Shown here: positions 14,575-46,404 of the stretch, piece after piece
Layout of the letters: every line of letters begins with the position of its first letter
Numbering within the stretch: position 1 is the first letter of the stretch
The notes under the pieces: model-generated
Database searches by the model: none
Told to the model about the DNA's origin: nothing
The model's input: only the letters and a program-made list of their open reading frames with translations
Translations under genes and position numbers: made by a program
Origin: Amphiscolops sp. MND2022
Lineage: Eukaryota
Reading direction: 5' to 3'
Assembly: GCA_964187785.1 (NCBI GenBank)
Contig: OZ076417.1
Coordinates: 24,304,001-24,368,000 of the forward strand
DNA: 64,000 nt

Positions 14575-14840
14575 CATTCACATTGTCATTCCGGTGAAAA
14601 ACTTCCTATTAAAACTTCCAATCAAGTCTATTACATCCCACTCTTACCATTATTGTTGTCTATTACATCCCACTGATACCATTATTTTTTTCCATTTTCA
14701 TTCATGATGTTTAACTGAAACAAATTCAATAGTTTGGCATCGTGAATGAAAATCGAAAACAATATTGGTAAGAGTGGGATGTAATAGACTTGATTGAATG
14801 TTTTAATAGGAAGTTTTTCACCGGAATGACCATGTGAATG
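14575..14840. repeat. Inverted duplication (83-bp arms, 100-bp spacer) of the integrase zinc-binding segment
   Basis: 14575-14657 is the reverse complement of 14758-14840; both strands translate to HSH.HSGEKLPIKT.NQVYYIPLLP. Confidence 0.9.
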
Positions 14841-16761: not shown

Positions 16762-17151
16762 CTGTAAGTTTTCCAAAATAGATTGTACAAATCGAAAAAA
16801 TGCTGAAGCTGATTTTTTCTTGCAGTAAAAATTAGTAACTCATAAACTAAGTCCGACCTTCATCGGCCATTGTTTTTTCGGCGAATCTTTTTTAGTATTC
16901 AATTCAAGTTAGTATCTGAAACTTGTACTTGTCTTGTGGGATGATCTATAACTGATTGCACGTTGCTCTCATCAAAAAATCCTATCGTCAGGAAAAACGG
17001 TGTTTTGGTTCCAACACTCGTCTTCACATCGTAAAGAAAATATGGTTCAATCATTGGGATAAAAAACACTTTTCAAAAAATAGAAAAAGTGAAGAGTGTA
17101 TCGACAAAGCATAACTAGTAAAAAACTTGTGAAAGTAAAATTGTACTATAC

Positions 17152-21240: not shown

Positions 21241-21270
21241 CAGTTTTTCATAATCACGAATTCAACTTAC

Positions 21271-21762
21271 CGCAAACGAAAGATCCGGGAAAATTAAGAC
21301 AGTGTAAATTAGGTGATTGAACGCAGTCGTGGAGGTTCACTAAGCACTCATCAACGTCTAAACACTCTTGAGAGGTCGCTCCTTTTGTGAACCCACTTGA
21401 ACATGTGCATGTGAAACTTCCAACAGTGTTTTGACATACCTCCCGCTCATTTGAACACGAGAAATCACATTCATTGATATCGATACAACTATCATCTGGC
21501 TGCTGTTGTCGAAGAAACCCGGCCTCACAATGGCAAGAAAAATCACCAGCGTGGTTTAAACAAACTTCAAAACTTCCAGGACAATATATTTGTGAGAAAA
21601 GACATTCATCGACATCCGTGCAGGTCACTATACCTTCTCTCCAATTCGTGGATGATTCGTAGCCAGGTGCGCATGAACAATCAAAGCCTTGGTTGATCAC
21701 ATTGACGCAATCACCAGCATTTCCACCACATGTCTCTTCGCGCTGAAGACACTCGTCAACAT
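21271..21762 (-). CDS. Exon encoding four tandem calcium-binding EGF domains (fibrillin/fibulin-like module)
   Basis: 492 nt, phase 1-1, TTTTAG| ... |GTAAGT. Motifs DVDECLQ, DVDECLF...CLNHAGDFSCHCEAGF, DINECDF...CQNTVGSFTCTCSSGF and DVDECLV...CLNFPGSFVC. Confidence 0.9.
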
Positions 21763-24103
21763 CTAAAATCGGAACATGGATTTTTCAGGCTCTTTAGGGC
21801 AGTTTGTAGTACAGGTTTCAGAGGAAAAATACATATCTTGCAGGAGATCTGAAAGAAAGTTCCGTAAAACAATCTGGCAGAGCATATAAATTGCTTCGAT
21901 AATAATTATAATTAATCTTTCTCTTTGCTAACCTGAAGAACAGCTCGACATCTTTGTCGGCAGACCCTTCTGTACAACCGTAACATTGGTTCGACTATTG
22001 TCGGTGCAACCTTGTTTCTGCATTAGCCAAAACTTTGCTTTGGTTCGACATTTTCTATTTTGATACAACAATTTCATTTGCTCTATACCATCAAAAACAC
22101 TTACCGCATCATTTTTGGTTGACTTTTGTATCCACATTTGCTCAAACTTTAGTCAAACTTTTATGGTCCTACTCTATTTTATCGCCCTACTTGCCATAAT
22201 CGCGCTTGTTATACATAAAATTGTCACTGTTTTCATCCCTCACGAAACACTTGCCCTAACTGAAAACATAGTGACAATCGTTCTTTTCGCATATTTTTTT
22301 TCAGTGCTTGTTTTCCAACTGCATTTGATTGAAAACATTATTTGTTTTTACAATTTTCACTAATATTCCCAATGCCTTTCTAGCTCTTATTTTATAAAGC
22401 TCACAGCAACCTCTCGTTTTATATATTTATTTACATGTAAATACATTATTCATGGTGGGTTACAATGTTCTGCTTTAGAAGCACCAAATCGATGCGAATT
22501 TCCAAACTCAAAGGAGCACTTTCATCACTGGGAGGTCCAAGTGTGAATAGGTTCAAAAACCAACTTGCAGATGTGATAGCATTTGCACATCACGTTGAGT
22601 GACACATATTAAGACCAACAAAGTCAAGATTTGTTGATGTTTGAGATTGTTGTGTGGTATTTAAAGTGGGCTGTTAACGACAGTTACTATTTTATCGACT
22701 TTCGTTTCTTTCGAAATGGAATTGACTAGATGGTCTATCTTGAATTTCGAAAACGTAATTGTTACATTGATTTCTGATGAGTTGGATCACGAGATCCAGG
22801 AAAACGAAGGTTTGGGCTTTGACAATGTGAGCGGTTGGAGTATGATTTATGATCACCATCTTTTATGATGTTGATCTTATCTAATCTAATTCCTAACGTT
22901 TTGAGAAGAGCTCTGAGATTGACAGTGTTTGTTATGATATTTATGGATTGAAGTTGAATGAGAGTAAGTTTGAGTGATGTCTAGGACTTTCTTTATTCAA
23001 AACTGCAATCCTTCAGATCAAGTCAATCCCTCATCTGAAAAAAATTGGAACATATACTACAAAACGACTCTTCCAGTCTTCTTAAGTCCTTTTCCAGTCT
23101 TTTGTCTCATTTCTGATCCCACTGATATTGGTTCACATCTACACACTGACATTACCAGACCTCCTCCACCGGACCCGCAAATGGATTAAGTTTGCCTCTT
23201 ACAAAACCTCACCAAAACCATGTATTAGAACACCTCCTAGCTATCAGTGGTCAACCTTCCAGAAGCGATGCAGATTCCTTTACATTTGCTCTATTATACC
23301 ATATAATTCTTCCATCAAACTCAGCCACACATTGAACTACTTCTCTTGAAAATCTATTGGACTGTACCTCCGAAACAACTTCGTCTCGTCCCAGTGGACG
23401 TAGATCTAATCTTAGCTCAGCAAACCCTCAAAATTCTCATTCTTTAGCAAACTCTAACTTACTTCACTATACTTAGACGCCAAGAAGAATATCTCTCTAC
23501 CGACACGTTGTCATCTCAGTTTAATCTTTTTAAATCTCTTTTTCTGATATTACCACAGATTTTCAAAACGTTCTCAGAAAGAAAATGATGAATGCTTCAC
23601 AGTGGAAAACAGTCAAAGTAATCACTAGCTTACACACTTTGATTGTTTTTCACTTTGAAAGTGAATTCCAGTCAAATTGTGTACCAGGTTAAAGTGTAAA
23701 ACAATCAATTTCCGTCTTCGTGTGTGAAGTGGAAACCACTCAAAGTACGTAATTGTAGAGAGTGTAAAGTAGTCAATCGCTGTAGTTTGATCACTACGCG
23801 TAACGCCAAATCACACAGTGTAACGAGCAAAACTCGTAACGCGTATCAGAAATAATAACGCGTTTCTATTGGCTGTTAGTCGAACTAGCAAGATCTTGCT
23901 AGTTCGTTGCGGCATATGTATCGTAATGCTTTCATTACTTCTTGCATTATAACTGAAGAGTTTTTTCTAGATCTCATTTTCCATCATCCCATTTCTCAAA
24001 TTCCAAAAATTTTTCAGCAGATCTTGACCAAAACTCTTGATAGGATGATTTTTCATTTCCTCCAATTCCTGACAGCTGACTACTCTCTAACAAATAGCGA
24101 CAC

Positions 24104-25034
24104 TGTCAGAACGAGTCACGTTCGTGTTGATAACGGTGTTGAGACCGCCACATTCGGTCGTCGGTGATGATATTTTCTCGGTAAGGGCTAACACAATGTT
24201 TGTTAATTCGCTGATTTGTTTATTCATCTCCATGAAACGTTGATCAACGGAATTTGAACTAGAATTTTGTCTAACATTGATTAAATCCCCATTCTCGAAT
24301 TCATTTATCTGGTTTCTAGATAACGTGTTAGGGAAACTATATTCGCTCTCGTTGTCACTATTCTGTTCCATTCCGCTGGAACATGCAACATAACTATCTA
24401 CGTTTTGAGATCTAGTATTGACCATCTTTGAATCTTCGAAAGGAATTGTTGTTTTGAAGGTTTATTGATTTTAATTGGAGATATGAATAATCAAGTTTTG
24501 ACTAAATCAATGAGGTAAGCAACACTACGTTAGGCTGTGTAAAACTTCGTACTGATGGTACTTCAACTCTTGTCGCAATTTTCACTGCAGTTGGTCACGT
24601 GACCGCATTGGCCAATAGTATTGCGCTATTGATTAGGTGTTAATTGGTGCGTACTGCCTGTAGCAACGTAAATGGTGTTTTGTACAAAAGGTAGCACCAA
24701 TATGTTACCATGGTTACATGAATCATCTATCACTTGCGTTGGTTGATACAAATTGCGTCTATGATGGTGCACTACCAACGTTATATATGATACTACATTT
24801 TACTGATGAAATTAAATATGGTGAAAGCACTTGTACGTAGCGTGTAATGAGTAAATGATGTCAACGTTTACAATTCGTTTTTTATTTTAGGAAGTAATAA
24901 TAATGATGGGATAGGCCCGTCATTGTTCAATGGTAATTTATGGTTATTGAAATATCAAGAGTATTACATTTAACTGAGTTTTTTAAATGTTTAGAGTGTT
25001 TTTTATCAGTTTCATTCATGCTTCCGGCATGACA
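24104..25034 (-). repeat. 3' LTR (931 bp)
   Basis: Direct repeat of 38856-39786 with about 10 substitutions counted by eye; preceded on the minus strand by the PPT. Confidence 0.97.
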
Positions 25035-25046
25035 CTCCCCCTCTTT
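25035..25046 (-). other. Polypurine tract
   Basis: Minus strand AAAGAGGGGGAG immediately before the TGTCA LTR start, preceded by a T-rich tract. Confidence 0.9.
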
Positions 25047-26065
25047 AAAAGAAAAAGAGAAGTGCAGGGGTCTTTAGAAATCTGATAGCGGGGAGGTGAG
25101 GTAAATGTAGTAGCTTCACTTATGCAGTAAGTATTGGCTGATTAATCTTTCTACGAGGGTGATTTGGCTGGTGTAGTGACCTCAGTTACTTTTGGACTGT
25201 CCGTTACGGATGATGTCATAGCAACCACGTCGGTAGTGATGAGTTGCTTTGATGGCTTTGAGTACTCGGATTGTTTGGGACCAATTGTTACTTCGATTCG
25301 GTACAGCAATTGAGAGGAAGAGAATGAGTTTAGCGTAACGAGTGAACCACTTCGGTAAATAGTAATTGTAGAGTCGGTGTGGCGAGAGTAGCCACGTCAT
25401 CCAATTGTGCGCTTCGTTTGTAGTAAGAGTTTAAGTAAGAATGAATCTGCCGGAAATTAGTTGAACGTGGCAGCGTGATATAATTACTCGGCTCATTCGG
25501 TAACTGTTCGGAAGTAAATGTAGTGGAACATCGTACGCTTTGTCAACAAATCTTCGTCGGTGCTAAATACGAGAGTAGAAGTAAGCTTGGTTACGGTTGA
25601 TTCAGTTGTTGATTGAAGTTGTTCTTATCCAGTTAGCGATATACCAGGTGGATGTGATTTGACTAGCGGTAAATCGGTTCAGTGAATGCTGCCTGCATCT
25701 AGGTTGTTCTGCGTGGAAAACTCAATTGCAGTGTAGTAAGACTTCCGAATTTGGCATTCTGTTTTCTTGTTTTTCTCTTTTCCCCTTCTTTTCTTTAGTT
25801 TTGAGTAGGATCCAGCGATCTTTAGTATTCGAACGCAACCGTTCTTTGAGTTTGAATTTTTTCCGAGTGAAATATTTGCGAGTAAATTCGGTTGAAGTTT
25901 CTCTTTGTGATATTCCGGTGTCTTGTGAACACAGAGGGTGTGGGTGATCAGACCACATCTCGTATTGTCAAAGACGCTGAAGCCTGGTAGATCGCGAATT
26001 CTACAGTTATAGATCCTTGTTGTCTCGTTCGCCATTGGTTGTTCGTGATTAGTTCCATTACTTGG

Positions 26066-27356
26066 ATGTTATCCCCTGAATTGTCTGAAGAAGAAGTTGC
26101 ATCGATTGTGATAGCCGCGGAAGGCGCGCTAGCTGAGATGTCAAATTTGGAGCAGTTATCTGATGAAGAAGGGTTCCAAGCCTCAGTTGATACGTTGTTG
26201 GAAGGAGAGACACCATCTGTGTGCTGCCAGTTTGCTCAGCGTGTGACTTCGTCCAATGTAGAGGCTGCTACTACTTTGTTGGAGATAGCTCTCTCCAGTG
26301 AAATCCGTAAGTAAATCCGTAGTTATCGTTTTCCTTCCTTTTGGCTACTGAGACGGTCTTTCAACGTGTTTGTTATTGTGTGCTTTGTAGTTAGGGCTAA
26401 GCTCGTCAAGGTAATTGAAATGTTTGTTGCATTGGTATTTGTGTACTGTAGTTACCAACGTCTCGACTAAAAGAACTTCCCGGGAACTATTACCTTGGGT
26501 AGACTTCTGGGCATTGCTAATGGTACTCATAGGTTAGATTGTAACATGTATGTTGCAGAATCTTTGAGTCTGACCGATATCGTCGCCGCTCTACGACGAA
26601 TGCTTCAACAGAATGAGCCTCCAGTAGTTGCATCTCCCGTGAGTGCCGTCGAGACTGGGCTCCGGAATTATGTATACAGCCAAACTGGTAAGTCTGTTCG
26701 CTAACTGATTCGTTATTGTAACGAAGGTGTTGTATGATCGTTACTGCTCGGTACGGCGTGTCGGTTGTTTATGGTTGGCTTCGAGATGCACTCTCGTTTA
26801 CACGATGTGTAGTAATCTGCGTTGTTATCTTTTGGGTGGGATGTTTCCAGGTACGGCGTTGGGTGACTTGTTAACTCTAGACGACGTCGTTGCTGCTATC
26901 GCTCGACTGCAAAAAGAGTTGTCCGGCGTGGTTAAGGCCACCATCGAGTCCACTCTTGGTCAGCTCGGGACAGTTGGGGCAATGGCTGTGGATGAGTTTG
27001 TTGGTCAACTGACTGCAGCAGTTTCCCGTTTAGTCCCTGCTAGTGGCTTGAAAGCAACCGTGCCTGGGGAGGATGCCCCCCTCATCTCGTCATCATCATC
27101 TGTGGGTGTTGCGCCAGTTGAAAATGATGCTCAAAAAGACTTGTCGGTCGTAAGTCGGACAGCATCGATGGTTCCTTCCATTTTTGGAGAGGGAACCGTA
27201 GCAGGATCATTCAGTGCAGGGAAAGTGGCTGCTGCTAAACCTGGTAAGAATCTCAAAAGATCATGGGCGGGGTTTTAGTGAACAATAATGTTAAGATTAT
27301 CAAGAGACAAGACTAGATATATATGTTTTTTTTTGTTTTTTTGTGTGTTTGTTTTT

Positions 27357-27413
<57 letters not shown>

Positions 27414-30400
27414 GACTATTTAACGCGTTGTGTAATTGCGTTCTAGCTCGTGCTCGGAAGATCAAGACGCTCAAGCCGTCTTACTTTGTTTCTGGCGTCG
27501 TGGGGACCTTCGTTGGGTTCCCCCGGAACAAGCGGGTGATTGACGGTTACGCTCGATGTTTACTTTGTCGTGCGGATTTGAGCATTGCAGGACGTGGTCT
27601 GTCATCGTTATGGGATCACTGGAAGGGAGTTGAACACACCCGATTGGAGCAAAAGTACAGGATTATGACACACAGGCCATTGCTGGACAAGTCTTGCAGG
27701 CTAGTATCTGCAGGAGAAGATAGACGGATCAGACGTGCTCGGCTGACCGAACCGCCGGTCTTTCTAGAGTCTGCGCTGAAGTTAACTGTGGAGGAGCGAA
27801 TAGCCATGGAGGAGTCAGAGGCTGAAGAAGGCGCGCGTCCGCAATTGCAGGACGAAAGTGTGAATTACTTGTGGCTGAGTAATTTCGTCTCAAGTTTTCT
27901 GACTGTGACGTCTTTTGATGGGGTGCTCCGGTCGCTGGACTCATGGAGGGACTGTATGGCCAACGAACTTCGTTTTGAGTGCCGTACTCTGACCTACTCT
28001 CGATGTCAGGTAAAAATCAGATTTTGCAGTTATTATTAAGTTGTACTGGTTACTTAGTTAACTTGCTAGTCACGTGGTTGTTATCGGTGCATTGTAACAC
28101 TTTTCGGGTACGGGTGTTGTGTTTGCCTAAGTTTTTCGGTAATTTTATCAGTTTGTTTGATTCTGTTTAGAGTCTCGTGCTGTATGGCTTATACCAGTAT
28201 GCAGTTGAGCAGTTAGACGCACTGGTTGCAGCAAGCTCTTGCATCGGCGTTTGCATCCGTCAGTGCGATTGGCGGTGGTGTGGTGAGCTCCACATCGTTG
28301 GCGTCCATGGCATAACTTCAGTGGTCTTGGCGCTTGTTTCCGGTGGAACTGGATGGGAGAAGCGGCAGTTGAACAACGTCATCCCAGTTCTTGCGTGTCT
28401 CAAAGACAGAACTCAATTGAAGACGATTGCGGTGGAAGGTGATGTACATGTTGGGCGGGCGTTGGCTGCAGTGGTATTGCCTAAGACTCCTCTCGTGGTG
28501 GGGTTGATTACGCAGCGGTCAGTGTTCAACGAGGTACAAAAACAGTTTCTCGCAGAGTTCGCGGGTCTAGATCCCCTCAGTGTCCTGGAATGCTTTCGTG
28601 TGAGGCTGATGTCCGTTGCTCAAGAGGGTTTCTTAGACCGTTTGCCGTTATTGCAGCGGGTTAGTAAAAAAACCCCCTTTTTTTGTTTTTTCTTTTTTTG
28701 TGTGTGTGGGTCATGGCATTTGCGTAGGTTTTCGATTGTTTGGCTCTGGTAAAAAGGTAGATCGTGTTCTTGTTTTGTAGTATATTCGACTTGGTGGAGA
28801 TGACGTGTCCCAACTTGCACTGGTTTGCGCAGAAGTGGTGGACTACTGGAATGATTTGGCGCTGTACTTTGGTACTCATAAACCGGGAGTGACGTCGGAA
28901 CTGCGTCCGATTACTCCTCTAGAAAGTCAGGTGTTCGAGGATGCACTGATTCGGCCTCGTTTTGCTGTTCTGCGCTCAGTGTTAGATTTGAGTGAGTATG
29001 GGTTTATATGCTGTTGATCGGATACTCATTTGAGTACACGTGTAGCTGTAATTTTGTATGTTGAATATGGTCCAAAATTAGGTTAAGTGGGGACGTATGG
29101 AGCTAAAGTTCTGCGTGTACAGTTTGGTGTGTAACCCCCTGGTGTTGTGTTTTAGTGGTTAAGCACTGCCCTAGTTTGTGTAGACGTGGACGTGATTATG
29201 GCATTGTCTCGGAACGGGAACTGGCTCACCTTTTGCGTGGACTAATGAAGTTTATCTATCCGGCTCACAGTATTCCAGCGGAGTACGAGATCGCTGCCTT
29301 GTTGAAAAATGTGGACCGGGAGTATGCAGACGTAGACTCTAACATGTACAGATTACATTTCGGGCAGTACTTCCGTTTCGACATCAGCACTCAACTGCCT
29401 TTCTTTTACAAATCTGTCCAGAAAATGTTAGTCGGTATATGTCGTGGATTGAGCGGATTGTGGCAGCGTACGTGGCCCCAGCATTTGAGCTTGACTCCAT
29501 TTGATCCGGTTCTCATTCATAGTGGGTCGGATGATCGCTGTGTCGACTCCTTAGTAGCAACTTGTGCTGTGTTGACTGCTCATGGGCTTGTGGGACTAGA
29601 TGATGGCGGAGTAGTTCAGCAACAGTATCGCGAAGTCACCCAATTTTTCAAGAGACGCTGGGCCTCTACTGCGGAAGAACTACCAGTAGTGGAGGACATT
29701 TTCGCGTTGTGGATGTCGTATCCTCACTGGGAGCGATGCGAACAATTGCGGCAGGTCATCGATCTGGCTTTCAGTGCAGTGGCCACTAGTTCGTACCGGG
29801 CGGATTTTGTCGATGACGTCGGCGGAGCTTTGGATCCTGATGCACTGGCTTCAAGTGTGCATTTCGTCCGGAGTTGGTTCAGTCAGTCTTTTGTGGGAAA
29901 ATCGCGTCGTCAACTACGTGGTTTGTTGCGTGTCATTGAGACAACCGACATGCAAGTGTCTCGTTTAAACGATAGCGTTCGCGCTAAACCGTGGGATCAA
30001 CTCCTCAAAGTCGGACTGGATCAAACGTTGTCCTTGTGTGTATCCATGTTGGGCAATGGTCCTGATACTGCAGTCGTTCCGGTAGTGGATGAGTATCGTT
30101 CGACAGTACTTGCGCAGTTGAATGTTATGGTGGTAATGGCAACGAGCCCTACTCGTGTAGCGACGGGTTTTAAAGCGATGCCGACCAGTACAGACGCGAA
30201 ATCCAAACGGCCCCGCAGTCAGTCTGATGTGAAATTGAAGACTCCCAAGAAGACGCCCAACGTGGCTACGGTTGGAACCTCTAAATCTACTGGGCGAACG
30301 AGAGGCGTTGTGGTCAGTCGGCGAGGTCATAGTGCAGCGGTGAAGTCTGGAAAAGGACGGCGAACTGGCGGGAAACCGCATGCATCTAAGAGACTTGTAT

Positions 30401-30516
30401 TATCTACGGCGGCAAGTGAGGCTTCAGATCATGGTAGTCAATCGTCCAGTGACGATGTGCCATTGTCTACTACTAAGCGGACGAAGCAGGTCATCCGTGA
30501 TTCATCGGATGAATAG
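26066..30516 (+). CDS. Spliced antisense gene inside the retrotransposon; 1159-aa hAT-transposase-like protein, apparently catalytically inactive
   Basis: Exons 26066-26306, 26391-26410, 26452-26498, 26533-26687, 26851-27243, 27447-28009, 28171-28659, 28781-28991 and 29156-30516. All introns are GT-AG, all phases are compatible, and the 3480 nt total is open. CX2CX16HX5H finger at 27557-27637; YWNDLALYF, PFDP and FALW...LRQVIDLAFSAVATSS motifs. Exons 2-4 are less certain than exons 5-9. Confidence 0.82.
27359..27410. repeat. (TA)26 microsatellite in intron 5 of the antisense gene
   Basis: Read directly. Confidence 0.95.
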
Positions 30517-32636
30517 TTGTGAACTAAACATGCTGTTGAGCTTGTATTTGTCAGTTTGTCGCTTGCTGAAATGATTTGTACCACTTTGAATGTTTTGCTT
30601 CTGAACGTGTAGTTTGTATACCTTTTTTGTTGATTTATCACGGGAGCGTTTTTATGTGTATCGGGAGTCACAAGGTGCTAGTTGCGTTACCCGGTAACCT
30701 CCTTTCCTACTTGTTGAACTTGTGGTTATTTTACATGTTTTAGAACGTTGAGTTTGTTTTTCAGTTTTCATTTTGATGATTTTTGTTTCATTCTGCATAC
30801 TTGTTGTGTTGTTCTTTCTTCATGATTTGTAGTATTCAGTTGTTGTTGGTCCATTACCTTTGACTAAGTTTTGTGTTACTTCCAATGCCCTTATTACAGT
30901 TGAATTTACATGTTGCCTACGTTATACAAATTTTTTACCCTAATTTGCATGTAAACTTAGGTAGCTGGTCTCAAAATGTTGGAGCGATAGACTCAGCTTT
31001 GCAAGTCATTCAAGTTCTAGTAGAGTAGTCGCCGAGGTAACTACCATTGAAAAGCTCTCACTCACCAAGTGCCATCCTCGTGTCAGCGTTGTTCATGATT
31101 ATAGCTTACATATGACAGAGATGGAAACTTGGTGGGTGGGTGGAGTCGCTCAACTCCTACAGATGATTTGAACTTTTGAGTAGCTGCTTTTATAGTGCTC
31201 TAGTTGGTTATTTGACAGGTGTTTACTAACTTAGGTGTCATTCTAATCTGTCAGTTCATGTCGAGTTTTACATATGTTCATTTATCATGTAGCGTTATTC
31301 TTGACGTCGTCATCGTTGATGTGTCTCATGCGACGTCATCACTCGTGTCGTGTGTCAAGTGTTAACGTCAATCTTAATGGTAGATGGGTTTCCCCATAGC
31401 CATTAAACTTTTTGACAAGGGATGGTGAGTTCCATCCCTTGTTACGAATCTTCGGTGATGTAGTGAATAAGCCTGCATGTTTTTGAATAAGCCTACGCAT
31501 CAACAGTAGGAACGAAAGTGTCATGACCTGAATTCGATGTAAAGATGATGACTGCATTTTACTGTCCTAGGAAAAGTTTTATATGTTGTTCGTTGGATTG
31601 GGAAGGTTATTTGCCGTCGCAAAAACCCATACAAAACTAACACCGAATCCACTTGCTAAAGAGCAAGCTTCATCTGAATGTTTGTACAACCACACAGACG
31701 CGCATTTGACGACGCACCCACACAGCCGAACCACATCATGATTTCCTGGGCGGAAGTGCGGGACTAGATTTTGGCGGCGTAACTTAACTAAGGCAGCTAT
31801 CTCTTTTGCATGTTCGGTTGTGTGCTGTTACTTTTGCTAAATTGGTTTATTACTGTCGTCATAAAGTTGGTAAGTACAGAATTGCAAAGCAATTCCTTTG
31901 AAAGCGTGTGGTTGGGATTTTCTGTGAATTGTATAAATTAGCAACTCGTTTGCATGTGTTTTACATGTACTTAATAATTTCCGGTTAACGTGATGTGGTG
32001 TGTATGACTGCATTGCATGTATTTACTTTTGCGCTCAGCTGTCTCGGTAGAGAGTAACAATATACTCTGCCGGTAAACTCAAGTATGTCGGACAGTGAGT
32101 ATCAGTCGTCACTGAATGGCGTAAAGTAATCCAAACAATTTAAAGGTATGATTGATGCATGTGGTGATGTCGACTACATTCAATTAATTGCATGTATATT
32201 TTTTCTTTATTTATGGTGAAAATGACGTGGTACGTGTGGCAGCGTTAGGTGTTTCTTTTCGTTCATACTGCTGGTGGAATAGGGTGAGACGTTGAATAAC
32301 ACGTAGCGACGCAGTGTGTGGGACTGCGTAACGGCTTTCTCGTCTGTCGTTCGTTAGCCGGTTAAGGGCGGAAATATGCTCTGGCCGGTAATTTTGAAAA
32401 CTGATGACAGTGAGTGTTAGACGTTATTTATGGTATCATTCAGTATTGTTTTTCTTCGTGTCTACTTGATCTAATTTACATGTATGTGTTACGAGATTCT
32501 CTCTTTTTTGTTTTTTGTAGAGAGTGTAGGACACTCCCATTTACTTTTGCATGTGATATCACTTCTCGTGCCGATACGAGGCGAAGCCTACGAGTTGTCA
32601 GCAGGAGAGAACACAGATTTTATGTTTGCATGCGTT

Positions 32637-35600
32637 TTAGTCGGCGGATCTGTCTTGCATGAATTTTAGCAGAGCCGGTTTGACTCGGAGTTCGTGGACT
32701 AAGAAGTCTTGGTAGGTTTTCGGTTGCGGTTCGGTTCGGAGGTTGTACCGTGTTGCGTTGTTACGCGACGTTGTGTGGTCATGCTCATTATGAACTGTCG
32801 TTGTATGTTCAGTCACAGGTTCGTTTGTTTCAGTATCAGGTTCGTTGTTGGTGTCGTAATGAACAACTGAATTGTCAGGCGGTTGCTCGCAGGTTTCAGG
32901 TGAGCTCTCAGGAATTGGTTGCGTCAGCGTATGATCGTTCAATTTCCGTACATGCTCATAATAGATAATGCCGTGTTCATTATTGATTTCTTCTTGATCG
33001 ATTGTTTCCGGTGCCGGTTCCGCATACAAATGCTGAGGCATGTGGTCATTGAAGAGCGCTTGATCATCGGCCGCATCGGGGTCAGCGAACAAGCGATTTG
33101 AGTCTTCTTCAATGTCCGGTATTGGTGCGTTCGGTGTGAAAGGACGTAGTCGCAACCTATGCACGCACTGTGTTCGGAAGGTTCCGACCTTCCTGATTAT
33201 GTAGTTAAAGTTTGTCAGTACTTTAATTACTTTGAAGGGACCTTCCCATTTGAAGTCATGGAAGTTAATCTTGTCGGACTGCGTTGTGAGTTTAGGATTA
33301 AGCAGAAATGTGTAGTCGTTGACCTTTAATGGTAACGCTTGGGCTTTACGGTCGTAGTACTTTTTGTACTTGTGGTATGCTTGCAGTATGTTATCATTGA
33401 CTTGTTGGTATTTGCCGTTCACCTGGTCAACTAATCTTGTTATATCAGTTTCCGTGGTTTAACATTTCAGAGGGTTACCGAATTTGAGGTCTAACGCGTT
33501 AAACGGAACTCTGCCGTGGAAGACTTCGCTCGGAGTGCACTTGAGTGATTGATGGTAGGTTGTGTTATGAGCCATTACTGCAAGATTAACGTACCTGTCC
33601 CATTGGGGGGAGTCGACGGAAATGTTAATCTTCAGAATCGGTTTCAGTCTTTGGTGGGAACGCTCCACCATCCCTATGGTTTGGGCATGCTTTACAGTAG
33701 CGTGATCGATTTTGATTTCGGCAGTTTTCATGATTTCGGTCATGATGTTGGATGTGAAAGCCGTGCCTTTGTCGGTGATAATTGTCTTCGGGACGTAGGC
33801 GTGTTGGGTGAATATTTGCATGACCGCTTTTACAACCGATTTAGTGTCTGGTTTCCGTATAGGTACAAATACCGTGAGAAGTAGTCGCACGCCCTCAGGA
33901 TGTGCGTATATCCGTTTGAGTTAGGTAGTTCACCTACTAAATCGATTTCCAGTACGTCTTCCGGGCCGTTACAGGGGTCGTAGATTTTTTCCAGAGGAGG
34001 CGTTAGTCGTCTTGGGTTAACAGGTTTTGCTTTGATGCACTCAATACAATTACTTACGTACTTTGACACGTGTTCACTCAGGCTTGGTATGTAGTAACGC
34101 TTGCAGAGTTCTACCAACATTTTTGATGCCCCAGGGTGTCCCTGCATGGGGTCGCCATGCATTGTCCTGATTATGGGCATGGTAGTTTCTGGAGGAACTA
34201 CGAATTGTTTAAGTAGAATTACGGGAGTGTTATCAAAAACGTTCCTGTACAGTACCTTGTTGACTACTTCAAGTCTTTTTTTGTTTTTTACCAGTTTTTG
34301 AAAAAAGGAGCTAGTAAAGTTAACGTGGTTTGGTAGTGGTTCGTTGTCGACTAAAACGCGGACCATTTTTTGGACGTCTTGGTTACCTAACTGATCTTGG
34401 ACGATTTGTGAATCCCCTTGCGGGCATACCTGATTTACCGGGTTAAGGTGGTGACGTCTGGTAAACCTCGTCAGTATGCTGGAAGGGGTGTCTCCTGCCA
34501 GAACAGGTTCAAGGTGTCGGCTGATGATCTGAATCATCTTGAGACGTTCGTCGTCATGTGTTTGAAGGTTATTCGCCATTGAGTTTAGTAGAGTTCGCAT
34601 CTTGGTGAAGTCGTCTGCTGGACCGGTGGTTTCAGACTGATGTGTAGTGGGTATCGCTGCATCGGGTTGCTGTTGGTCTGGGTCGTAGTCTTCTTCGTCC
34701 TCGTCCTGTTTTGGGGTTTTGGCCGCAAGATCTATTTCGATGTGGTGGACTGGAATCTGGTCATTCAATTTCAAGTGAATCCTGTCTTCAGGGTTAATGT
34801 CTAATCGAGACAGGTAATCCGCCGCTGGGTTCTCGACTCCAGGGACGTGGGCGAGAACAAAGTCAAATTGAAGTGCTTGGTCACACTGGTTCCATAGTTT
34901 GGGTGGTATTCGTTTCGACTGGAAGAAGCGGGTCAGAGCCTTGTTATCTGTCATCACAATTGTGGGTTTTTTGACACCCCACAGTATGTGAGCAAATTCG
35001 TCGAAGGCGAAGTGCATTGCGAGGAATTCTTTAGCATACATGGTCAATGACATTTGACCTTCCGTGAATCGTTGCGAGCCGAATGCTACAGGGGCGTACG
35101 TCTTCTTCTGTCCATCATTGGCTTCGGTGTACTCCTCAATGAGGAGCACGTACCCTGCTGCGTGTTCACTCGCATCACACATGATGACCAGTTGTTTGTC
35201 TGGTAGTGGTAGTCGCAGAGATAGTTTTGCAGCTCGTGCCAGGTTCTGATTGATATCACAAATTGCGTCCTTGTGAACCTGCGCCAGGGTGAACTTGATG
35301 TCTTTCTGTAGTAGTTTGTACAGAGGTACAAGTTTTTCTGCCAACATCGGTATGTACTGTCTGTAGAATTGTACAAATCCGATGTAGCGTTGAAGTGATT
35401 TGACTGACGTTGGTGTGTTCAGGTTGTTGAGGAATTTGTCGATCTTGTCCTCAAGTGGCGCAATCCCTTTGGTAGTGATGCTTCTACCCAAGAACTCGAT
35501 CTTCGGGTGACCAAAGGCGCATTTTGACATCGACAGCTTTAGACCTGCCTTCTGAATCTGCTGGAAAACTGCTTCGATGTTGATTATCAGTTCGTCCACA

Positions 35601-37594
35601 TTGTTGGCAGCGATCCCAATGTCGTCAACGTATTAGGCACATTTGTCTGCTTTTACCAGTGCATCTAAGTACTCTCGAATTGTACTGTTGAATGCAGACA
35701 AAGACCTATTCAACCCTTGCGCGAGTCGGAGGTAAGCAAAGGTTCTGCTGCCAAAATTGAATGCCAGAAGTTGTATTGATTGTTCGTCGGCCATTTGGAA
35801 TCAGTGGTAAGCTTGCGAACAGTCAAGCTTGCAAAAGTACCTTTTGCCAGCCATATGCTGGGCTGCATCGGCAATGGTCGTTACTGGGTGGTTGTGGTTG
35901 TTGTAGTCATTTTTGAGGAGGTGGTTGATCCGCCTCAAGTCGACTAATATCCGAAGTTTCCCGTTAGGTTTTCGTTGTGCGAAAATTGGGGAGGAATATT
36001 TGCTGTATGGTAACGTCGTGATGATCCCGTACTCCTGCATCAGTGCGAGTTCGACCAGCAGATCATCTTCCAGATTGGTTGGAGTAGGTAGACTCTGGGC
36101 GTACACGGGATCATCGTGTTTTGGGGTCAGCTTGATCTTGAAGTCGGTGTTGATGCCGATATCAAGACGATGTCTAGCAAATATCGTGTGATATTTGACG
36201 AGCAGTTCTTCGATCCTCTGTTGCTCGTGCTCAGTGAGGATTGAGTCGTCCCAGCTGAAATTTTTGAGGAACGTTTGGCGTTGTTCGTCATCGCATGTCG
36301 GGTTGAGTTTTTCAGCTTCTCGGAGTTTGATGAGTTCGTCGTAGATACGTCTTTCTATTTTATTCAGCTTGTCAGGATCGTCACATGTTTCGGGAGTCGG
36401 GTACCATCTATTATCATTTGTGGCACTGGGATCCTGGAACAGTTGGTTGATCACATTAGCCGCTTCATCAGGGAATTTAGTGATCAACGCCAGCTGCTCG
36501 TTGGTCATTGGCTGGATGTTTCTGGCTTGGTTTGGCGTAAGTATTCGGAAGACTGCGATTGTGCTGTTCTGAGGTATTGTAACTGCGTGGTCCATGTGGT
36601 TGGTAATTTGGACGTGTGTCTGTTGGTCCTTGATTTCAGACATTGATGGTGACACTAGCAATTCGGTTTTTCGTTCAAAGGTTGGGAACGCCTCTATTGT
36701 GCCTCTCACTATTCCGATGTCCTTGTCCGTTGTAACAGTCACAAATATTTGTTGTCCGGGCGAGATGGTTGTTTTTTGGGTTGTTCTGAGTTCCAACATC
36801 TGCAGTGTGAATTTCCCGTTTGGCGGTTTTAGTTGGAGGGTTATTTCTGGGAATCGCACAATGTTATTTGCAAGGTCTAGCGTGACAGAGTATTTTTTAA
36901 AGAAGGACATTCCGATGAGGATGTTTCCCATTGTTGGTAGGATCATGAATGTCTCTTCGAATATTTTTCCCCCAATGAAAAATCGAAGAAGCACTTGTTT
37001 TCTCACCGGAACGATATTTCCGTTGGCTATTTGGACTTTAAAGTCCGGTGCTGGATATTCTTCCAACTGGGCTGCTGAGTGGGCTTGTAGGATTCGACGT
37101 AGCTCGTTCTCAGACATCGCGCTCTGGATTGCTCCAGTGTCCAGTAGCCCTTGATTTTCATACTCACGGAATTGAAGAGGGACGTAGAGCATATTGTTTC
37201 TTCTGTCTAACTGGAGTGTAGCGCTTAATGGTCTGATGTTTGTTGGCTTCGGTTGGTGCCCCTGTTTGGTATTGTCATCCAGTTCATTCGGTTTTTGTTG
37301 TGGGTTTCTAGTTCTGGTCGGGTTGACACTCTCTCGTTGGTGTGGCCTAGCTGCAGTCTCTTTCGGAATGCAGCCCTTCGTTGTACAATTAGGGTTGTCG
37401 TCTATGAGAGGGAGTATGTGGTAGTTGTTTGTCGAGACTTTGCGTACATAGTATTTCGTTGATAGTTTAGTCTGTTTGTCAGGACGCTGCCAACATCCTG
37501 TCGTTGTAGTTTTCGAGTAGTAGTGAGTTTGAGTTGGTTTTTTGGTGCGCGCACTTTCTGTTTGGTTGGACTGAGGATGACGTGGTATTACAAG
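32637..37594 (-). pseudogene. pol: Gypsy pol (protease, RT, RNase H, integrase), disrupted
   Basis: Motifs LLDTGA; SSPIF..RKPNGKLRILVDLRRIN; LDCSQAYH; YVDD (35621-35632); CDASEHAAG, TDNKAL, NPAADYLSR; H..PMQGH...CIEC; IDLVG, TDKGTAF, GMVERSH; WEGPF. In-frame stops at 35801-35803, 35633-35635 and 33459-33461, and a frameshift at about 33865. Confidence 0.95.
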
Positions 37595-39177
37595 TTTTTT
37601 GAATTCGTATCATATTCATCGTTGTAATCCATGTCGTAGCAGTCGTTGGTTTCTTCTGGTTGGGTGGTCTGGCTTGTCGCTTGCGTGACTTGGTAGGTCG
37701 GTTGGTAGTTGTTTTGTGACTGTTTGAATTCACGGCGGAACTCTCGGTTTTCATTGGTGGATTGTTTGTCATATGGTACATTTCGGTAAGCCGATGCACC
37801 TGGTACCCTGTCTCTGCAATCCCGTGCTGAATGTCCGATCCTGCCACAAATTTGGCATACTAATTTGGAGTTGTATCGTGGTTTTTCGGTTTCTTGTTGT
37901 TGGGCATTGTTGTTTCCAGGTTGGGGACGTTGTTGTGATTTCTTCGTTATTCCGTTGGCTTCGTCCCTGAGGCGTTTACGGCATTCGATCCACTTGTGGC
38001 CCAGTATGTTGCAGTATCTGCAATTTCCTTCGAATCTTCGTTTGACTTCTCTTGTTGGGTTCTTCTCGGTGTTGTTTGGGTTGTGGGCTGGCTGAGCGTT
38101 GTTTTGCTTTGGTTGGTAGTTGTAGACCTGGTTAAGTGGCTGCATATCTGAGGTGCCGGGGAGCAGTTGTGCATATTGGCAACGGCGTTGTACAAACGTC
38201 TTGATTTCTTCAACCTTGGCATCGTGTTTGCCTGCCATGGCAAGTTCATTCTGAATCTGGATTGGTAGTTTGGCAAACAAGAATGTTTCGGCTATGTCAT
38301 TGGCTTTATCTCCGTATGCTTGTTTGGCAAGTTTCTTGTATCTAGTTAGGAAATCGGCAAATGATTCCTTTGTGGGGTCATACCTCATCTGATCGAATTT
38401 GTACTTCGATACTTCTTTGAGGTCTTCTTTCGCATACTCCTTGGTGAAAGCTTGCAGGACGTCTTGGAGTGTCGTTTCTGTCGTGATTTTTAGTGTCTGC
38501 CAGAATTCTATGGCTTCGTCTCTAAGCAGGCTTTGAAAATAGTTTAGCTTCTGCTCTTCTGTTAATTTGTTCATGTGTGGGCGGAGGTGGTTCTTCAGTA
38601 GAGGTTCGAATTCGTTGTACTTCTCTCGGTTTCCGCGGAAGAGAGGTACTTGAGTTTGGAGGATTTTGGGCTGTATTACTCCATCGGTCATTGTTGTTCG
38701 TAGGTTGTGTATTTCGGTCAATACATCATCCATCTGAGGTTCGTTGGTGGGTGGTGCACGATCTCTGTTTTGGTGAGTTGCAGGGGTTGGGAGGGTCCTG
38801 CGTGGTTGTTGGATATTTGGAGTCGGATTTGGGTTCGTGGAGACTCCTGTGACCATGTCAGAACGAGTCACGTTCGTGTTGATAACGGTGTTGAGACCGC
38901 CACATTCGGTCGTCGGTGATGATATTTTCTTGGTAAGGGCTAACACAATGTTTGTTAATTCGCTGATTTGTTTATTCATCTCCATGAAACGTTGATCAAC
39001 GGAATTTGAACTAGAATTTTGTCTAACATTGATTAAATCCCCATTCTCGAATTCATTTATCTGGTTTCTAGATAACGTGTTAGGGAAACTATATTCGCTC
39101 TCGTTGTCACTATTCTGTTCCATTCCGCTGGAACATGCAGCATAACTATCTACGTTTTGAGATCTAGTATTGACCAT
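37588..39177 (-). CDS. gag: Gag (529 aa), intact, two CCHC zinc knuckles
   Basis: CRYCNILGHKWIEC and CQICGRIGHSARDC; capsid-like core (PLFRGNREKY...YFQSLLRDEAIEFW). The start codon lies inside the 5' LTR. Confidence 0.95.
   Translation of the reverse strand: MVNTRSQNVDSYAACSSGMEQNSDNESEYSFPNTLSRNQINEFENGDLINVRQNSSSNSVDQRFMEMNKQISELTNIVLALTKKISSPTTECGGLNTVINTNVTRSDMVTGVSTNPNPTPNIQQPRRTLPTPATHQNRDRAPPTNEPQMDDVLTEIHNLRTTMTDGVIQPKILQTQVPLFRGNREKYNEFEPLLKNHLRPHMNKLTEEQKLNYFQSLLRDEAIEFWQTLKITTETTLQDVLQAFTKEYAKEDLKEVSKYKFDQMRYDPTKESFADFLTRYKKLAKQAYGDKANDIAETFLFAKLPIQIQNELAMAGKHDAKVEEIKTFVQRRCQYAQLLPGTSDMQPLNQVYNYQPKQNNAQPAHNPNNTEKNPTREVKRRFEGNCRYCNILGHKWIECRKRLRDEANGITKKSQQRPQPGNNNAQQQETEKPRYNSKLVCQICGRIGHSARDCRDRVPGASAYRNVPYDKQSTNENREFRREFKQSQNNYQPTYQVTQATSQTTQPEETNDCYDMDYNDEYDTNSKNL
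37594..37600 (-). promoter_or_regulatory. -1 ribosomal frameshift slippery heptamer A AAA AAC
   Basis: Minus strand TCA AAA AAC TTG TAA ends gag; the -1 frame (AAA AAA CTT GTA ATA CCA...) is open through to the protease. Confidence 0.78.
38844..38855 (-). other. Primer-binding site TGGTCACAGGAG
   Basis: Starts with TGG directly after the 5' LTR end (…TGACA); priming tRNA not assigned. Confidence 0.75.
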
Positions 39178-39786
39178 CTTTGAATCTTCGAAAGGAATTG
39201 TTGTTTTGAAGGTTTATTGATTTTAATTGCAGATATGAATAATCAAGTTTTGACTAAATCAATGAGGTAAGCAACACTACGTTAGGCTGTGTAAAACTTC
39301 GTACTGATGGTACTTCAACTCTTGTCGCAATTTTCACTGCAGTTGGTCACGTGACCGCATTGGCCAATAGTATTGCGCTATTGATTAGGTGTTAATTGGT
39401 GCGTCCTGCTGGTAGCAACGTAAATGGTGTTTTGTACAAAAGGTAGCACCAATATGTTACCATGGTTACATGAATCATCTATCACTTGCGTTGGTTGATA
39501 CAAATTGCGTCTTTGATGGTGCACTACCAACGTTATATATGATACTACATTTTACTGATGAAATTAAATATGGTGAAAGCACTTGTACGTAGTGTGTAAT
39601 GAGTAAATGATGTCAATGTTTACAATTCGTTTTTTATTTTAGGAAGTAATAATATTGATGGGATAGGCCCGTCATTGTTCAATGGTAATTTATGGTTATT
39701 GAAATATCAAGAGTATTACATTTAACTGAGTTTTTTAAATGTTTAGAGTGTTTTTTATCAGTTTCATTCATGCTTCCGGCATGACA
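38856..39786 (-). repeat. 5' LTR (931 bp)
   Basis: Direct repeat of 24104-25034; AATAAA on the minus strand at 39213-39218; followed by the PBS. Confidence 0.97.
39345..39368. promoter_or_regulatory. Candidate LTR promoter: palindromic E-box GGTCACGTGACC next to palindromic ATTGGCCAAT
   Basis: Both motifs read directly; also present at 24593-24616 and in the third LTR copy. Confidence 0.5.
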
Positions 39787-40512
39787 GACACACTCCTAGC
39801 GAATCCTCGTGGATATCCTTGCTTTTATTACGTCGCTACTCACTTTCACCAATCATCTTCAACTCAACTAAGAAATCACTACACGTTTCCATATTCTTCA
39901 CCCACAACCAATTCATGCACACACTAGAGTTAATTTTCAATCACACCCTCACCCGTGTTTAACTTCGAAAACAGATATTTGTTAGATATTTGTTAGCAAA
40001 TTTCCATCTTTCGCCTTTCACAGAGCTTCATAACTTTTGTCATCATTCTAACATAACTTACATACAACTTTCATTCTTTCATAATCCATCCTACACTCGC
40101 CTTCTAGATTAAAACGACTCGGTTTCTCGTTATACCCTAACCTCTCCATTTAGTGACAAATCGAAAAACGATGTAATGATTCTGAATTTCCTAATAATTC
40201 TCCTATATCTGATCTATAAAACTCTCTCAATGACACTTCCAAACAACACAAATTCTGCCATTTGAAAACTTTGAGTTCAACTTTGTGTGCGAGCCCCTCT
40301 CCCTTCAGATAACACTCGTGTTTTAGTTGATTAGTTGATGTAGACGTTCATGCAAAAGCAAAATGTCTCACAGTTTGGACATGAAAGAAAAACGTTTATG
40401 GAACAAAAGGGAAAAGTTTGTGCAAAAATGATTCATTTCATCATTGCTGTGATGGAAAGGATTATAATCGAAATACTATAGAACCTCCTCGTATCTTAGG
40501 CCCTACTGTATC

Positions 40513-43056
40513 TTTGGTGCGCGCACTTTCTGTTTGGTTGGACTGAGGATGACGTGGCATTACAAGTTTTTTGAATTCGTATCATATTCATCGTTGTAAT
40601 CCATGTCGTAGCAGTCGTTGGTTTCTTCTGGTTGGGTGGTCTGGCTTGTCGTTTGCGTGACTTGGTAGGTCGGTTGGTAGTTGTTTTGTGACTGTTTGAA
40701 TTCACGGCGGAACTCTCGGTTTTCATTGGTGGATTGTTTGTCATATGGTACATTTCGGTAAGCCGATGCACCTGGTACTCTGTCTCTGCAATCCCGTGCT
40801 GAATGTCCGATCCTGCCACAAATTTGGCATACTAATTTGGAGTTGTATCGTGGTTTTTCGGTTTCTTGTTGTTGGGCATTGTTGTTTCCAGGTTGGGGAC
40901 GTTGTTGTGATTTCTTCGTTATTCCGTTGGCTTCGTCCCTGAGGCGTTTACGGCATTCGATCCACTTGTGGCCCAGTATGTTGCAGTATCTGCAATTTCC
41001 TTCGAATCTTCGTTTGACTTCTCTTGTTGGGTTCTTCTCGGTGTTGTTTGGGTTGTGGGCTGGCTGAGCGTTGTTTTGCTTTGGTTGGTAGTTGTAGACC
41101 TGGTTAAGTGGCTGCATATCTGAGGTGCCGGGGAGCAGTTGTGCATATTGGCAACGGCGTTGTACAAACGTCTTGATTTCTTCAACCTTGGCATCGTGTT
41201 TGCCTGCCATGGCAAGTTCATTCTGAATCTGGATTGGTAGTTTGGCAAACAAGAATGTTTCGGCTATGTCATTGGCTTTATCTCCGTATGCTTGTTTGGC
41301 AAGTTTCTTGTATCTAGTTAGGAAATCGGCAAATGATTCCTTTGTGGGGTCATACCTCATCTGATCGAATTTGTACTTCGATACTTCTTTGAGGTCTTCT
41401 TTCGCATACTCCTTGGTGAAAGCTTGCAGGACGTCTTGGAGTGTCGTTTCTGTCGTGATTTTTAGTGTCTGCCAGAATTCTATGGCTTCGTCTCTAAGCA
41501 GGCTTTGAAAATAGTTTAGCTTCTGCTTCTTCTGTTAATAGATCAACGGAATTTGAACTAGAATTTTGTCTAACATTGATTAAATCCCCATTCTCGAATT
41601 CATTTATCTGGTTTCTAGATAACGTGTTAGGGAAACTATATTCGCTCTCGTTGTCTCTATTCTGTTCCATTCCGCTGGAACATGCAGCATAACTATCTAC
41701 GTTTTGAGATCTAGTATTGACCATCTTTGAATCTTCGAAAGGAATTGTTGTTTTGAAGGTTTATTGATTTTAATTGCAGATATGAATAATCAAGTTTTGA
41801 CTAAATCAATGAGGTAAGCAACACTACGTTAGGCTGTGTAAAACTTCGTACTGATGGTACTTCAACTCTTGTCGCAATTTTCACTGCAGTTGGTCACGTG
41901 ACCGCATTGGCCAATAGTATTGCGCTATTGATTAGGTGTTAATTGGTGCGTCCTGCTGGTAGCAACGTAAATGGTGTTTTGTACAAAAGGTAGCACCAAT
42001 ATGTTACCATGGTTACATGAATCATCTATCACTTGCGTTGGTTGATACAAATTGCGTCTATGATGGTGCACTACCAACGTTATATATGATACTACATTTT
42101 ACTGATGAAATTAAATATGGTGAAAGCACTTGTACGTAGCGTGTAATGAGTAAATGATGTCAACGTTTACAATTCGTTTTTTATTTTAGGAAGTAATAAT
42201 AATGATGGGATAGGCCCGTCATTGTTCAATGGTAATTTATGGTTATTGAAATATCAAGAGTATTACATTTAACTGAGTTTTTTAAATGTTTAGAGTGTTT
42301 TTTATCAGTTTCATTCATGCTTTCGGCATGACAGACACACTCCTAGCGAATCCTCGTGGATATCCTTGCTTTTATTACGTCGCTACTCACTTTCACCAAT
42401 CATCTTCAACTCAACTAAGAAATCACTACACGTTTCCATATTCTTCACCCACAACCAATTCATGCACACACTAGAGTTAATTTTCAATCACACCCTCACC
42501 CCTGTTTAACTTCGAAAACAGATATTTGTTAGATATTTGTTAGCAAATTTCCATCTTTCGCCTTTCACAGAGCTTCATAACTTTTGTCATCATTCTAACA
42601 TAACTTACATACAACTTTCATTCTTTCATAATCCATCCTACACTCGCCTTCTAGATTAAAACGACTCGGTTTCTCGTTATACCCTAACCTCTCCATTTAG
42701 TGACAAATCGAAAAACGATGTAATGATTCTGAATTTCCTAATAATTCTCCTATATCTGATCTATAAAACTCTCTCAATGACAGTTCCAAAAAACACAAAT
42801 TCTGCCATTTGAAAACTTTGAGTTCAACTTTGTGTGCGAGCCCCTCTCCCTTCAGATAACACTCGTGTTTTAGTTGATTAGTTGATGTAGACGTTCATGC
42901 AAAAGCAAAATGTCTCACAGTTTGGACATGAAAGAAAAACGTTTATGGAACAAAAGGGAAAAGTTTGTGCAAAAATGATTCATTTCATCATTGCTGTGAT
43001 GGAAAGGATTATAATCGAAATACTATAGAACCTCCTCGTATCTTAGGCCCTACTGT
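40513..43056 (-). repeat. Tandem duplicate of 37541-40509 (gag + LTR + 723 bp flank) with an internal deletion removing the PBS and U5 end
   Basis: 40513-41539 matches 37541-38566; 41541-42333 matches 38994-39786; 42334-43056 matches 39787-40509. Scattered substitutions and a 1-bp insertion at about 41528. Confidence 0.92.
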
Positions 43057-46307: not shown

Positions 46308-46404
46308 AAAATCAGTTCAGTTGTAGTTTTTTTGATGCAATCAACTAAAGTGGTATGTTTATCTTTCACGAGTTACCGTTTTACTGTCCCTACATAATCG
46401 TAGG

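Follow-up and report, generated by a model that had tools for sequence, protein, structure and literature searches.

A probably hAT-derived antisense gene in a Ty3/Gypsy retrotransposon of Amphiscolops sp. and a candidate target of its zinc finger

In a stretch of 64,000 nucleotides from Amphiscolops sp. MND2022 (Eukaryota; GenBank assembly GCA_964187785.1, contig OZ076417.1, positions 24,304,001 to 24,368,000 of the forward strand; this whole stretch is called the window and its first letter is position 1) we analysed a spliced gene that is located inside a Ty3/Gypsy retrotransposon and runs antisense to gag and pol. The best reading of the data, for which we estimate a probability of roughly 55%, is that the gene derives from a dead hAT transposase that was retained by the retrotransposon as a DNA-binding accessory factor. 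The reading builds on the position of the gene between two long terminal repeats (LTRs), on the order and spacing of its domains, on the state of the catalytic positions in the homologues and on conservation that follows the exons. An oriented array of a short motif next to the gene is a candidate target of the zinc finger.

Self-comparison of the window revealed a 931-bp direct repeat (24104-25034 and 38856-39786), which is the LTR pair of the element. The two copies differed by 10 mismatches in 931 positions (98.9% identity) and showed TG...CA ends. The other hallmarks of an LTR retrotransposon, namely a 5-bp target site duplication (TSD), a primer-binding-site-like sequence and a polypurine tract, were also present. 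Pfam matches on the minus strand between the LTRs followed the order gag, then a pol with protease, reverse transcriptase (RT), RNase H and integrase, which is the order of Ty3/Gypsy elements. The element is a recent Ty3/Gypsy insertion of 15.7 kb, and the pol of this copy is broken by reading-frame breaks at about four places. The antisense gene occupies the 7.6-kb stretch separating pol from the 3' LTR, on the strand opposite to gag and pol. An earlier sequence-only reading of this DNA had suggested a transposase domesticated by another transposon, and the location between the two LTRs of a Gypsy element supports this. The parts of the element are as follows.

24099..24103 and 39787-39791, no strand: TSD GACAC, left and right copy, flanking both LTRs
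24104..25034, minus strand: 3' LTR of the Ty3/Gypsy element
25035..25047, minus strand: polypurine tract adjoining the 3' LTR
32637..37609, minus strand: pol (protease, RT, RNase H, integrase), from Pfam, with the reading-frame breaks
37588..39177, minus strand: gag, which begins within the 5' LTR and encodes CCHC knuckles; from open reading frames (ORFs) and Pfam
38838..38855, minus strand: primer-binding-site-like sequence, which starts with TGG and adjoins the 5' LTR
38856..39786, minus strand: 5' LTR

The start of the gag ORF within the 5' LTR (38856-39177) results in a duplication of about 100 gag codons in the 3' LTR. Next to the element, 40513-43056 contains a partial second copy of gag, of the 5' LTR and of about 720 bp of flank, with 37541-38566 and 38994-40509 repeated at >99%; this is either a tandem duplication or an assembly artefact. 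No tRNA genes were found in the window, and no Rfam families matched in 24000-43100.

For the interval 28171..29900 of the antisense gene, an unbroken frame had been described from the sequence alone. This applies once introns are removed, while the genomic DNA of this interval has three separate ORFs (28171-28752, 28781-29017 and 29107-30516), which are joined by the GT-AG introns 28660-28780 and 28992-29155. When all four GT-AG introns were removed (the other two at 27244-27446 and 28010-28170), the spliced frame from 26853 to the stop at 30516 was open over 1,004 codons. The GC content was 24-41% in the introns versus 49-53% in the exons, and intron 27244-27446 harbors an (AT)n run at 27359-27411. 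Upstream exons starting from an ATG at 26066 would extend the protein to about 1,100-1,140 amino acids, with ambiguous splicing at the 5' end. An internal repeat was suspected in the N-terminal exons, and no alignment of it was obtained. The C-terminal tail comprises 26 K/R and 37 S/T among 132 residues. The following parts of the gene, all on the plus strand, were distinguished.

26066..26687, plus strand: probable 5' exons from ATG 26066; many open splice paths, of which the 25 longest give 1,094-1,142 amino acids; covered by no homologue
26851..27243, plus strand: helical and low-complexity exon upstream of the finger; 4 homologues match and continue into the next intron
27447..28009, plus strand: exon with the BED-like finger and with helices at the place of the Hermes dimerisation domain; 6 homologues, 66-79% identity
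27557..27637, plus strand: BED-like zinc finger C-x2-C-x16-H-x5-H, from Pfam zf-BED, PDB 2DJR and the homologues
28171..28659, plus strand: exon for the RNase H-like core, with the order strand-strand-strand-helix-strand-helix, from 26 homologues, the model of homologue P0152 and Foldseek
28660..28780, plus strand: GT-AG intron with 36% GC and a possible in-frame microexon of 21 nt at 28728-28748
28781..28991, plus strand: exon with the start of the helical insertion region and an Arg at 28787; the partial homologue P0045 covers its 3' end
28992..29155, plus strand: GT-AG intron, phase 1; homologue similarity starts at about 29143-29158
29156..30516, plus strand: last exon with an all-helical region, the region of the expected Glu, about 75 conserved residues and a basic, Ser/Thr-rich tail

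The last exon yielded 146 matches at E<=0.001 (50%-identity representatives), two of which were spurious repeats, and there were 26 homologues for the core exon and 6 for the finger exon. For the last exon, alignment A1 was built from 59 of the 146 matches, picked for length and spread after two long repetitive false matches were dropped; alignment A2 contained 22 of the 26 core-exon matches and omitted four short, near-identical ones. All 32 matches with source information were unnamed ORF fragments from assemblies, and clusters had up to 34 members, as expected for a multicopy mobile family. Among 3,814 candidates there was no full-length homologue (778-2,220 amino acids), and neither a named relative nor a full-length spliced cellular protein turned up. 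A GTDB scan revealed no relative among 64 pattern matches, and the Atlas gave no usable match. We consider it likely that the gene is regularly carried by the Gypsy family.

Conservation followed the predicted splice sites. A Val was read directly after the end of the core exon in 20 of 21 homologues, as a GT donor predicts, and Gln-Val at the end of the finger exon in all 5 homologues that reached the donor; a Gln preceded the core exon in 6 of 6. At the boundary of the core exon, identity dropped from 62.5% in the last 20 exon residues to 20/160 in the read-through (14 homologues with <80% identity). This restriction to the exons extended down to 47% identity, with splice sites retained. Since conservation was confined to exons, the alignments indicate that selection acts on the spliced protein.

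About 75 residues at 29890-30115, past the expected end of a hAT transposase, were among the most conserved of the family, with several columns at 85-96%. The alignment suggests that they form an added domain.

The set of four zinc ligands was complete in the finger of the window, and likewise in 5 of 6 homologues; two exon-6 rows that had slipped into the finger columns by misalignment were disregarded. The complete ligands agree with the sequence-only reading, although the finger lies outside the interval 28171..29900 given there. In Pfam it matched zf-BED and no other family, at E=0.048 and thus short of the curated cut-off. Its sole PDB match was the BED finger of ZBED2 (2DJR, E=0.89); both matches are weak, and they agree. 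Apart from ZBED2, PDB sequence and profile searches gave nothing relevant. In the model of homologue P0152, for which pLDDT averaged 47 overall and about 58-66 in the core, the core exon folds into three strands and a helix, followed by another strand and helix. Foldseek placed retroviral integrase cores first for this model, with the HIV-1 integrase core as the best match (E=6.7e-4), and also listed endonuclease V, UvrC and the ISCth4 transposase. The model of the last exon was all-helical, with high confidence over residues 1-210; when it was used for fold searches, nothing reached E<=0.001 or Z>=8, and no specific fold stood out. The length of the helical region fits the Hermes insertion, again without a specific fold match. 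The region at the place of the Hermes dimerisation domain was predicted to be helical with pLDDT <50. No match to the hAT C-terminal dimerisation family, which we take to be PF05699, was obtained when 60 + 88 proteins were scanned singly; the resemblance to it is by eye, and so is the earlier statement that dimerisation modules remain.

The order of BED-like finger, RNase H-like core and long helical region in the protein is the hAT plan, as it is described in PMC10368747 and PMC6027215. Between the landmarks (first and second Asp positions D1 and D2, R and E), the distances were 59 residues for D1-D2, 77 for D2-R, 359 for D2-E and 282 for R-E. The residue numbers given for Hermes in PMC6027215 yield 68, 70, 324 and 254, respectively, while the D2-E distance stated for ISCth4 in PMC7780238 is 107. 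The spacing here resembles that of Hermes, unlike that of ISCth4. Because a BED-like finger, an RNase H-like core and a long helical region are combined with Hermes-like spacing, a hAT ancestry of the antisense gene is likely.

A hAT transposase should be flanked by terminal inverted repeats (TIRs) and an 8-bp TSD, and the sequence-only reading had named such ends around the gene as evidence against itself. None were seen: a scan for TIRs with an 8-bp TSD gave 3 candidates versus 0-4 in 20 shuffles. The gene was enclosed by none of the 3 candidates, and perfect inverted matches reached 11 bp at most. The other counter-evidence named in that reading, an intact DDE triad, was likewise not seen at the positions assigned below.

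Catalytic columns were placed by the fold and by hAT consensus motifs; the finer motif-by-motif correspondence to the hAT consensus is presumed. The motifs quoted earlier were all present: IGVCIRQCD from 28243, IAVEGD with its E at 28435-28437, TQRS at 28510-28521, and SSYRADF with R at 29797 and F at 29806. The states of the expected positions in the homologues are listed here.

28258..28260, plus strand: Arg at the expected first Asp in strand 1; acidic in 0/21 homologues
28435..28437, plus strand: Glu at the expected second Asp after strand 4; E in 21/22, D in 1/22
28510..28521, plus strand: TQRS at the expected C/DxxH; T in 22/22, His at the fourth place in 0/22
29797..29799, plus strand: Arg at the expected catalytic Glu (F minus 3, anchored on the ERxFS motif); E in 10/48, D in 2/48
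29812..29814, plus strand: Asp of a Y-x-x-x-F-x-D motif, five residues past the third position; D in 41/46, E in 1/46

Strand 1 (exon residues 24-32) was free of acids throughout A2 (up to 21 homologues), with one Asp in P0150. The earlier claim that all three catalytic positions are lost held for the first Asp, and the His of CxxH was gone as well, which in Hermes touches the scissile phosphate (PMC7780238). At the Glu position the residue drifted, and the second position is a conserved Glu. The RW motif had been called absent. Arg-Leu was found at 28787-28792, where RW (Hermes R318, W319) is expected, so that the Arg (28787-28789) stands at its place, followed by a Leu where the Trp would be; this is read from the window sequence, with no homologue coverage. 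The apparent deletion proposed in SSYRADF is not required before the F, since a freely drifting substitution suffices. Neither the D, D, E triad nor the His of C/DxxH that mark an active hAT transposase was found, and transposase chemistry has very probably been lost. Given the acids that persist in the alignments, a remodelled metal site keeps a low probability. A hAT-derived, non-catalytic protein, as the sequence-only reading had proposed, is supported by the finger, the RNase H-like core, the lost residues and the exon conservation; a direct match to Hermes or to a hAT Pfam family did not emerge.

The 2.1-kb non-coding spacer that follows the stop of the gene harbors an array of one motif.

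30731..32554, plus strand: ten dispersed TTRCATGT copies of uniform orientation within the spacer that separates the gene stop from pol

The spacer contained 10 TTRCATGT copies versus 8 in the remainder of the 64 kb. The expected number was 0.44, and none of 200 dinucleotide shuffles reached 10. The best 6-mer of the spacer exceeded the best 6-mer in all 300 shuffles, and 14 RCATGY sites were counted in 30517-32636. TTRCATGT was not enriched in the flanks, where 23.9 kb contained 4 copies and 20.9 kb contained 2. Hermes BED domains are described as binding dispersed short repeats. By analogy, the TTRCATGT array is a candidate target of the finger, and in this respect it ranks above the LTR palindromes. 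The latter had been considered as the prime binding target and were dropped, with arms of 6-7 bp only and without an over-represented word. The spacer also contains a hairpin with an 11-bp stem at 31415-31442.

The history that we regard as most likely is the following. A hAT gene would have inserted into a Gypsy element in antisense orientation, and this orientation would shield its introns from removal during reverse transcription. The introns would be kept because the genomic RNA of the element is antisense to the gene and unspliced at these sites, as established retrotransposon biology leads us to infer. Next, the DNA transposon may have lost its ends through decay and its active site may have been disabled, with the first Asp and the CxxH His lost and the Glu position drifting freely, and selection would have maintained the zinc finger and the fold. 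The gene would now be replicated via reverse transcription along with the element. Most likely, its product would serve in the nucleus as an accessory factor that binds DNA sequence-specifically. It would recognise the element in cis by means of the BED finger, plausibly at the oriented TTRCATGT array beside the gene, and would sustain transcription of the element or guard it against silencing. We propose cis-regulation through the array only tentatively. An effect on transcription or chromatin would be likelier than demethylation, because CpG is hardly depleted.

Several observations weigh against this reading. Each of the BED matches is non-significant on its own, and beyond the weak zf-BED match the hAT Pfam families were unmatched in the exons of the window and in the homologues. 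The P0152 core model is weak and was built with an intron read through. Its VIA-align matches (Z 6-8.5) are spread over numerous unrelated folds of the RNase H-like and actin-like kinds, and Hermes was not among the fold matches listed for it, although such lists do not exclude Hermes. The motif positions lean partly on a presumed hAT consensus. Conserved acids persist at the second site (E in 21/22), two residues past it (D/E in 21/22 homologues) and in the last exon (D in 41/46). Linkage to LTR elements across the homologue family is putative. As to the array, three non-coding regions were examined, and the motif was picked post hoc in one of them. TTRCATGT could be a site of a host transcription factor or of an RNA-protein interaction; presumably these would be POU-octamer-like host sites or UGCAUG-type RNA sites in the 3' UTR. 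The CpG observed/expected ratio in the window was 0.85-1.21 and thus barely depleted, which speaks against a literal demethylation of the kind attributed to VANC proteins.

DREF and DAYSLEEPER are examples of hAT proteins that were domesticated by their hosts. Domesticated hAT proteins usually retain DNA binding and lose catalysis, as described in PMC10368747. The antisense gene resembles the host-domesticated ZBED family in that the DNA-binding finger was kept and catalytic residues were degraded. ZBED genes are fixed host genes, in contrast to the gene analysed here, which is part of a recently mobile retrotransposon and has multicopy homologues. With the hAT transposases Hermes and Ac it shares the N-terminal BED-like finger, the RNase H-like core, the long helical region and similar landmark spacing. 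Unlike in Hermes and Ac, the first Asp and the CxxH His are missing, as is apparently the Trp, the Glu position is variable, and TIRs with an 8-bp TSD were not found. An extra N-terminal region, a C-terminal extension, the location inside an LTR element and the lack of a direct sequence or fold match also set it apart from them.

Antisense ORFs between pol and the 3' LTR are known from maize Grande (gene23), rice RIRE2, Retand (TRP28) and fungal Boty. A nuclear, DNA-binding regulatory role was proposed for these plant and fungal ORFs, and their origin is left open in the relevant passages of PMC7264820 and PMC11963269. According to the same passages, similarity to other transposable elements is lacking and the nested-transposon hypothesis is without sequence support. 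Unlike those ORFs, the gene described here is from an animal, has at least four introns and shows a whole transposase architecture. Plant extra ORFs with Pfam domains named "transposase" are known (TRP28, Transposase_32), and an Arabidopsis atlas describes LTR elements that co-opt host domains (PMC13547354). In animals, extra ORFs of bdelloid and planarian Gypsy elements encode DEDDy exonuclease, GDSL esterase and Burro domains (PMC5408684, PMC6431247). Those elements are likewise animal LTR elements with captured enzyme-derived accessory genes, although their extra ORFs, as far as they are described there, keep catalytic residues or sit in the polyprotein, and none is presented as transposase-derived. 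No precedent for a hAT-derived gene carried by an LTR element was found in open-licence full texts; the words "transposase", "hAT" and "antisense" do not occur in the main text of PMC13524379.

The array has a parallel in the Arabidopsis VANDAL elements. Their VANC anti-silencing proteins bind same-orientation motif arrays in the non-coding DNA of their own element (PMC5735166), and both systems combine an accessory protein encoded by a transposable element with a dense same-orientation motif array in non-coding DNA. VANDALs differ in being DNA transposons, VANC acts on DNA methylation, and the motifs described here are dispersed and not tandem. We draw this comparison as an analogy and claim no homology, and binding of the finger to the motif is putative.

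Antisense accessory genes of LTR retrotransposons have hitherto lacked an established origin and function. Because its DNA-transposase architecture is still recognisable, the gene described here would give the nested-transposon route a concrete case and would exemplify domestication across transposon classes. The small zinc finger and the candidate 8-bp motif array form a directly testable pair. The broadest version, that an animal Gypsy lineage domesticated an entire intron-containing hAT transposase as a catalytically dead accessory protein with a BED finger, together with a co-evolved oriented array of its binding motif, appears doubtful. If true, a class I element would have built a self-recognition system for anti-silencing or transactivation from a class II enzyme, and an antisense accessory gene would have a traceable transposon origin.

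Other explanations were also considered. The host may have domesticated a hAT gene first, as a ZBED-like transcription factor with introns, and the Gypsy element may have captured it later in antisense orientation. Loss of catalysis in host-domesticated hAT proteins is common (PMC10368747), and several introns as well as N- and C-terminal extensions are typical of cellular genes. We nevertheless regard this sequence of events as unlikely, since the 32 sourced matches, several of them in multi-member clusters, included no named or full-length spliced cellular protein, and since transduced host genes are described in PMC7264820 as usually sense-oriented.

Slightly less probable is a role in trans at integration, in which the protein would tether the Gypsy integration complex to selected DNA sites of the host or aid nuclear import, and the array would be unrelated. 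The finger together with the basic tail would suit such a function, and plant antisense accessory proteins are nuclear, with a role in handling the pre-integration complex proposed in PMC7264820. The lack of TTRCATGT enrichment in the flanks speaks against it.

The gene might also be functionless cargo, left over from an earlier insertion of a hAT element into the retrotransposon and carried along passively. In favor of this are the frequency of nested insertions (PMC7264820), the degraded catalytic residues and the broken pol of the same copy. Despite this, we consider passive cargo improbable: conservation was restricted to exons down to 47% identity with splice sites kept, the residue states were common to all homologues, and TIRs with a TSD were not found. 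There were also 0 breaks in 3.0 kb of coding sequence versus about four in 5 kb of pol, a difference that is no more than suggestive (estimated P ~0.09).

Slightly less weight still goes to a rewired active site, where a metal site would be built from the conserved acids and the protein would retain a nuclease or metal-dependent activity to some extent. The acids at the second site, two residues on and near the third site would be its ligands, while strand 1 was acid-free in up to 21 A2 homologues, with one acid in P0150, and the CxxH His that makes the scissile-phosphate contact in Hermes (PMC7780238) was gone in 22/22. Least probable is a non-hAT ancestor from among the RNase H-fold proteins, e.g., a transposase of the Mutator, P or Kolobok type: a direct hAT match is lacking and ISCth4 (IS256/Mutator group) was the sole cut-or-copy DDE transposase among the Foldseek matches listed, but the BED-like finger at the N-terminus and the separation of D2 and E by about 360 residues, versus 107 in ISCth4, argue against it, and a duplicate of the element's own integrase was ruled out (hhalign probability 0.1%).

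Outside the Gypsy element, the window contained other repeats and host exons; the exons for calcium-binding EGF and F5/8 domains, together with a LINE (long interspersed nuclear element), mark it as animal DNA. This LINE, which is degraded, with a coiled-coil ORF1, an apurinic endonuclease and RT fragments is present on the minus strand at 44030-47238. The region 11839-15374 has a skewed composition and degraded ORFs that look retroelement-like by eye, with no Pfam support; an inverted repeat lies at 14571-14844 and an N gap near 11.5-11.8 kb. A near-perfect 142-bp hairpin palindrome (98% complementary) at 3645-3929 is probably a miniature inverted-repeat transposable element (MITE) or a foldback element. 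Inverted copies of a dispersed repeat, with arms of 59 bp and 40 bp, are located 43 kb apart at 5735-6110 and 48772-49371. Host exons on the minus strand at 16550-16831, 21254-21784 and 60094-60573 encode F5/8 type C, calcium-binding EGF repeats and a weak Shavenoid-like domain.

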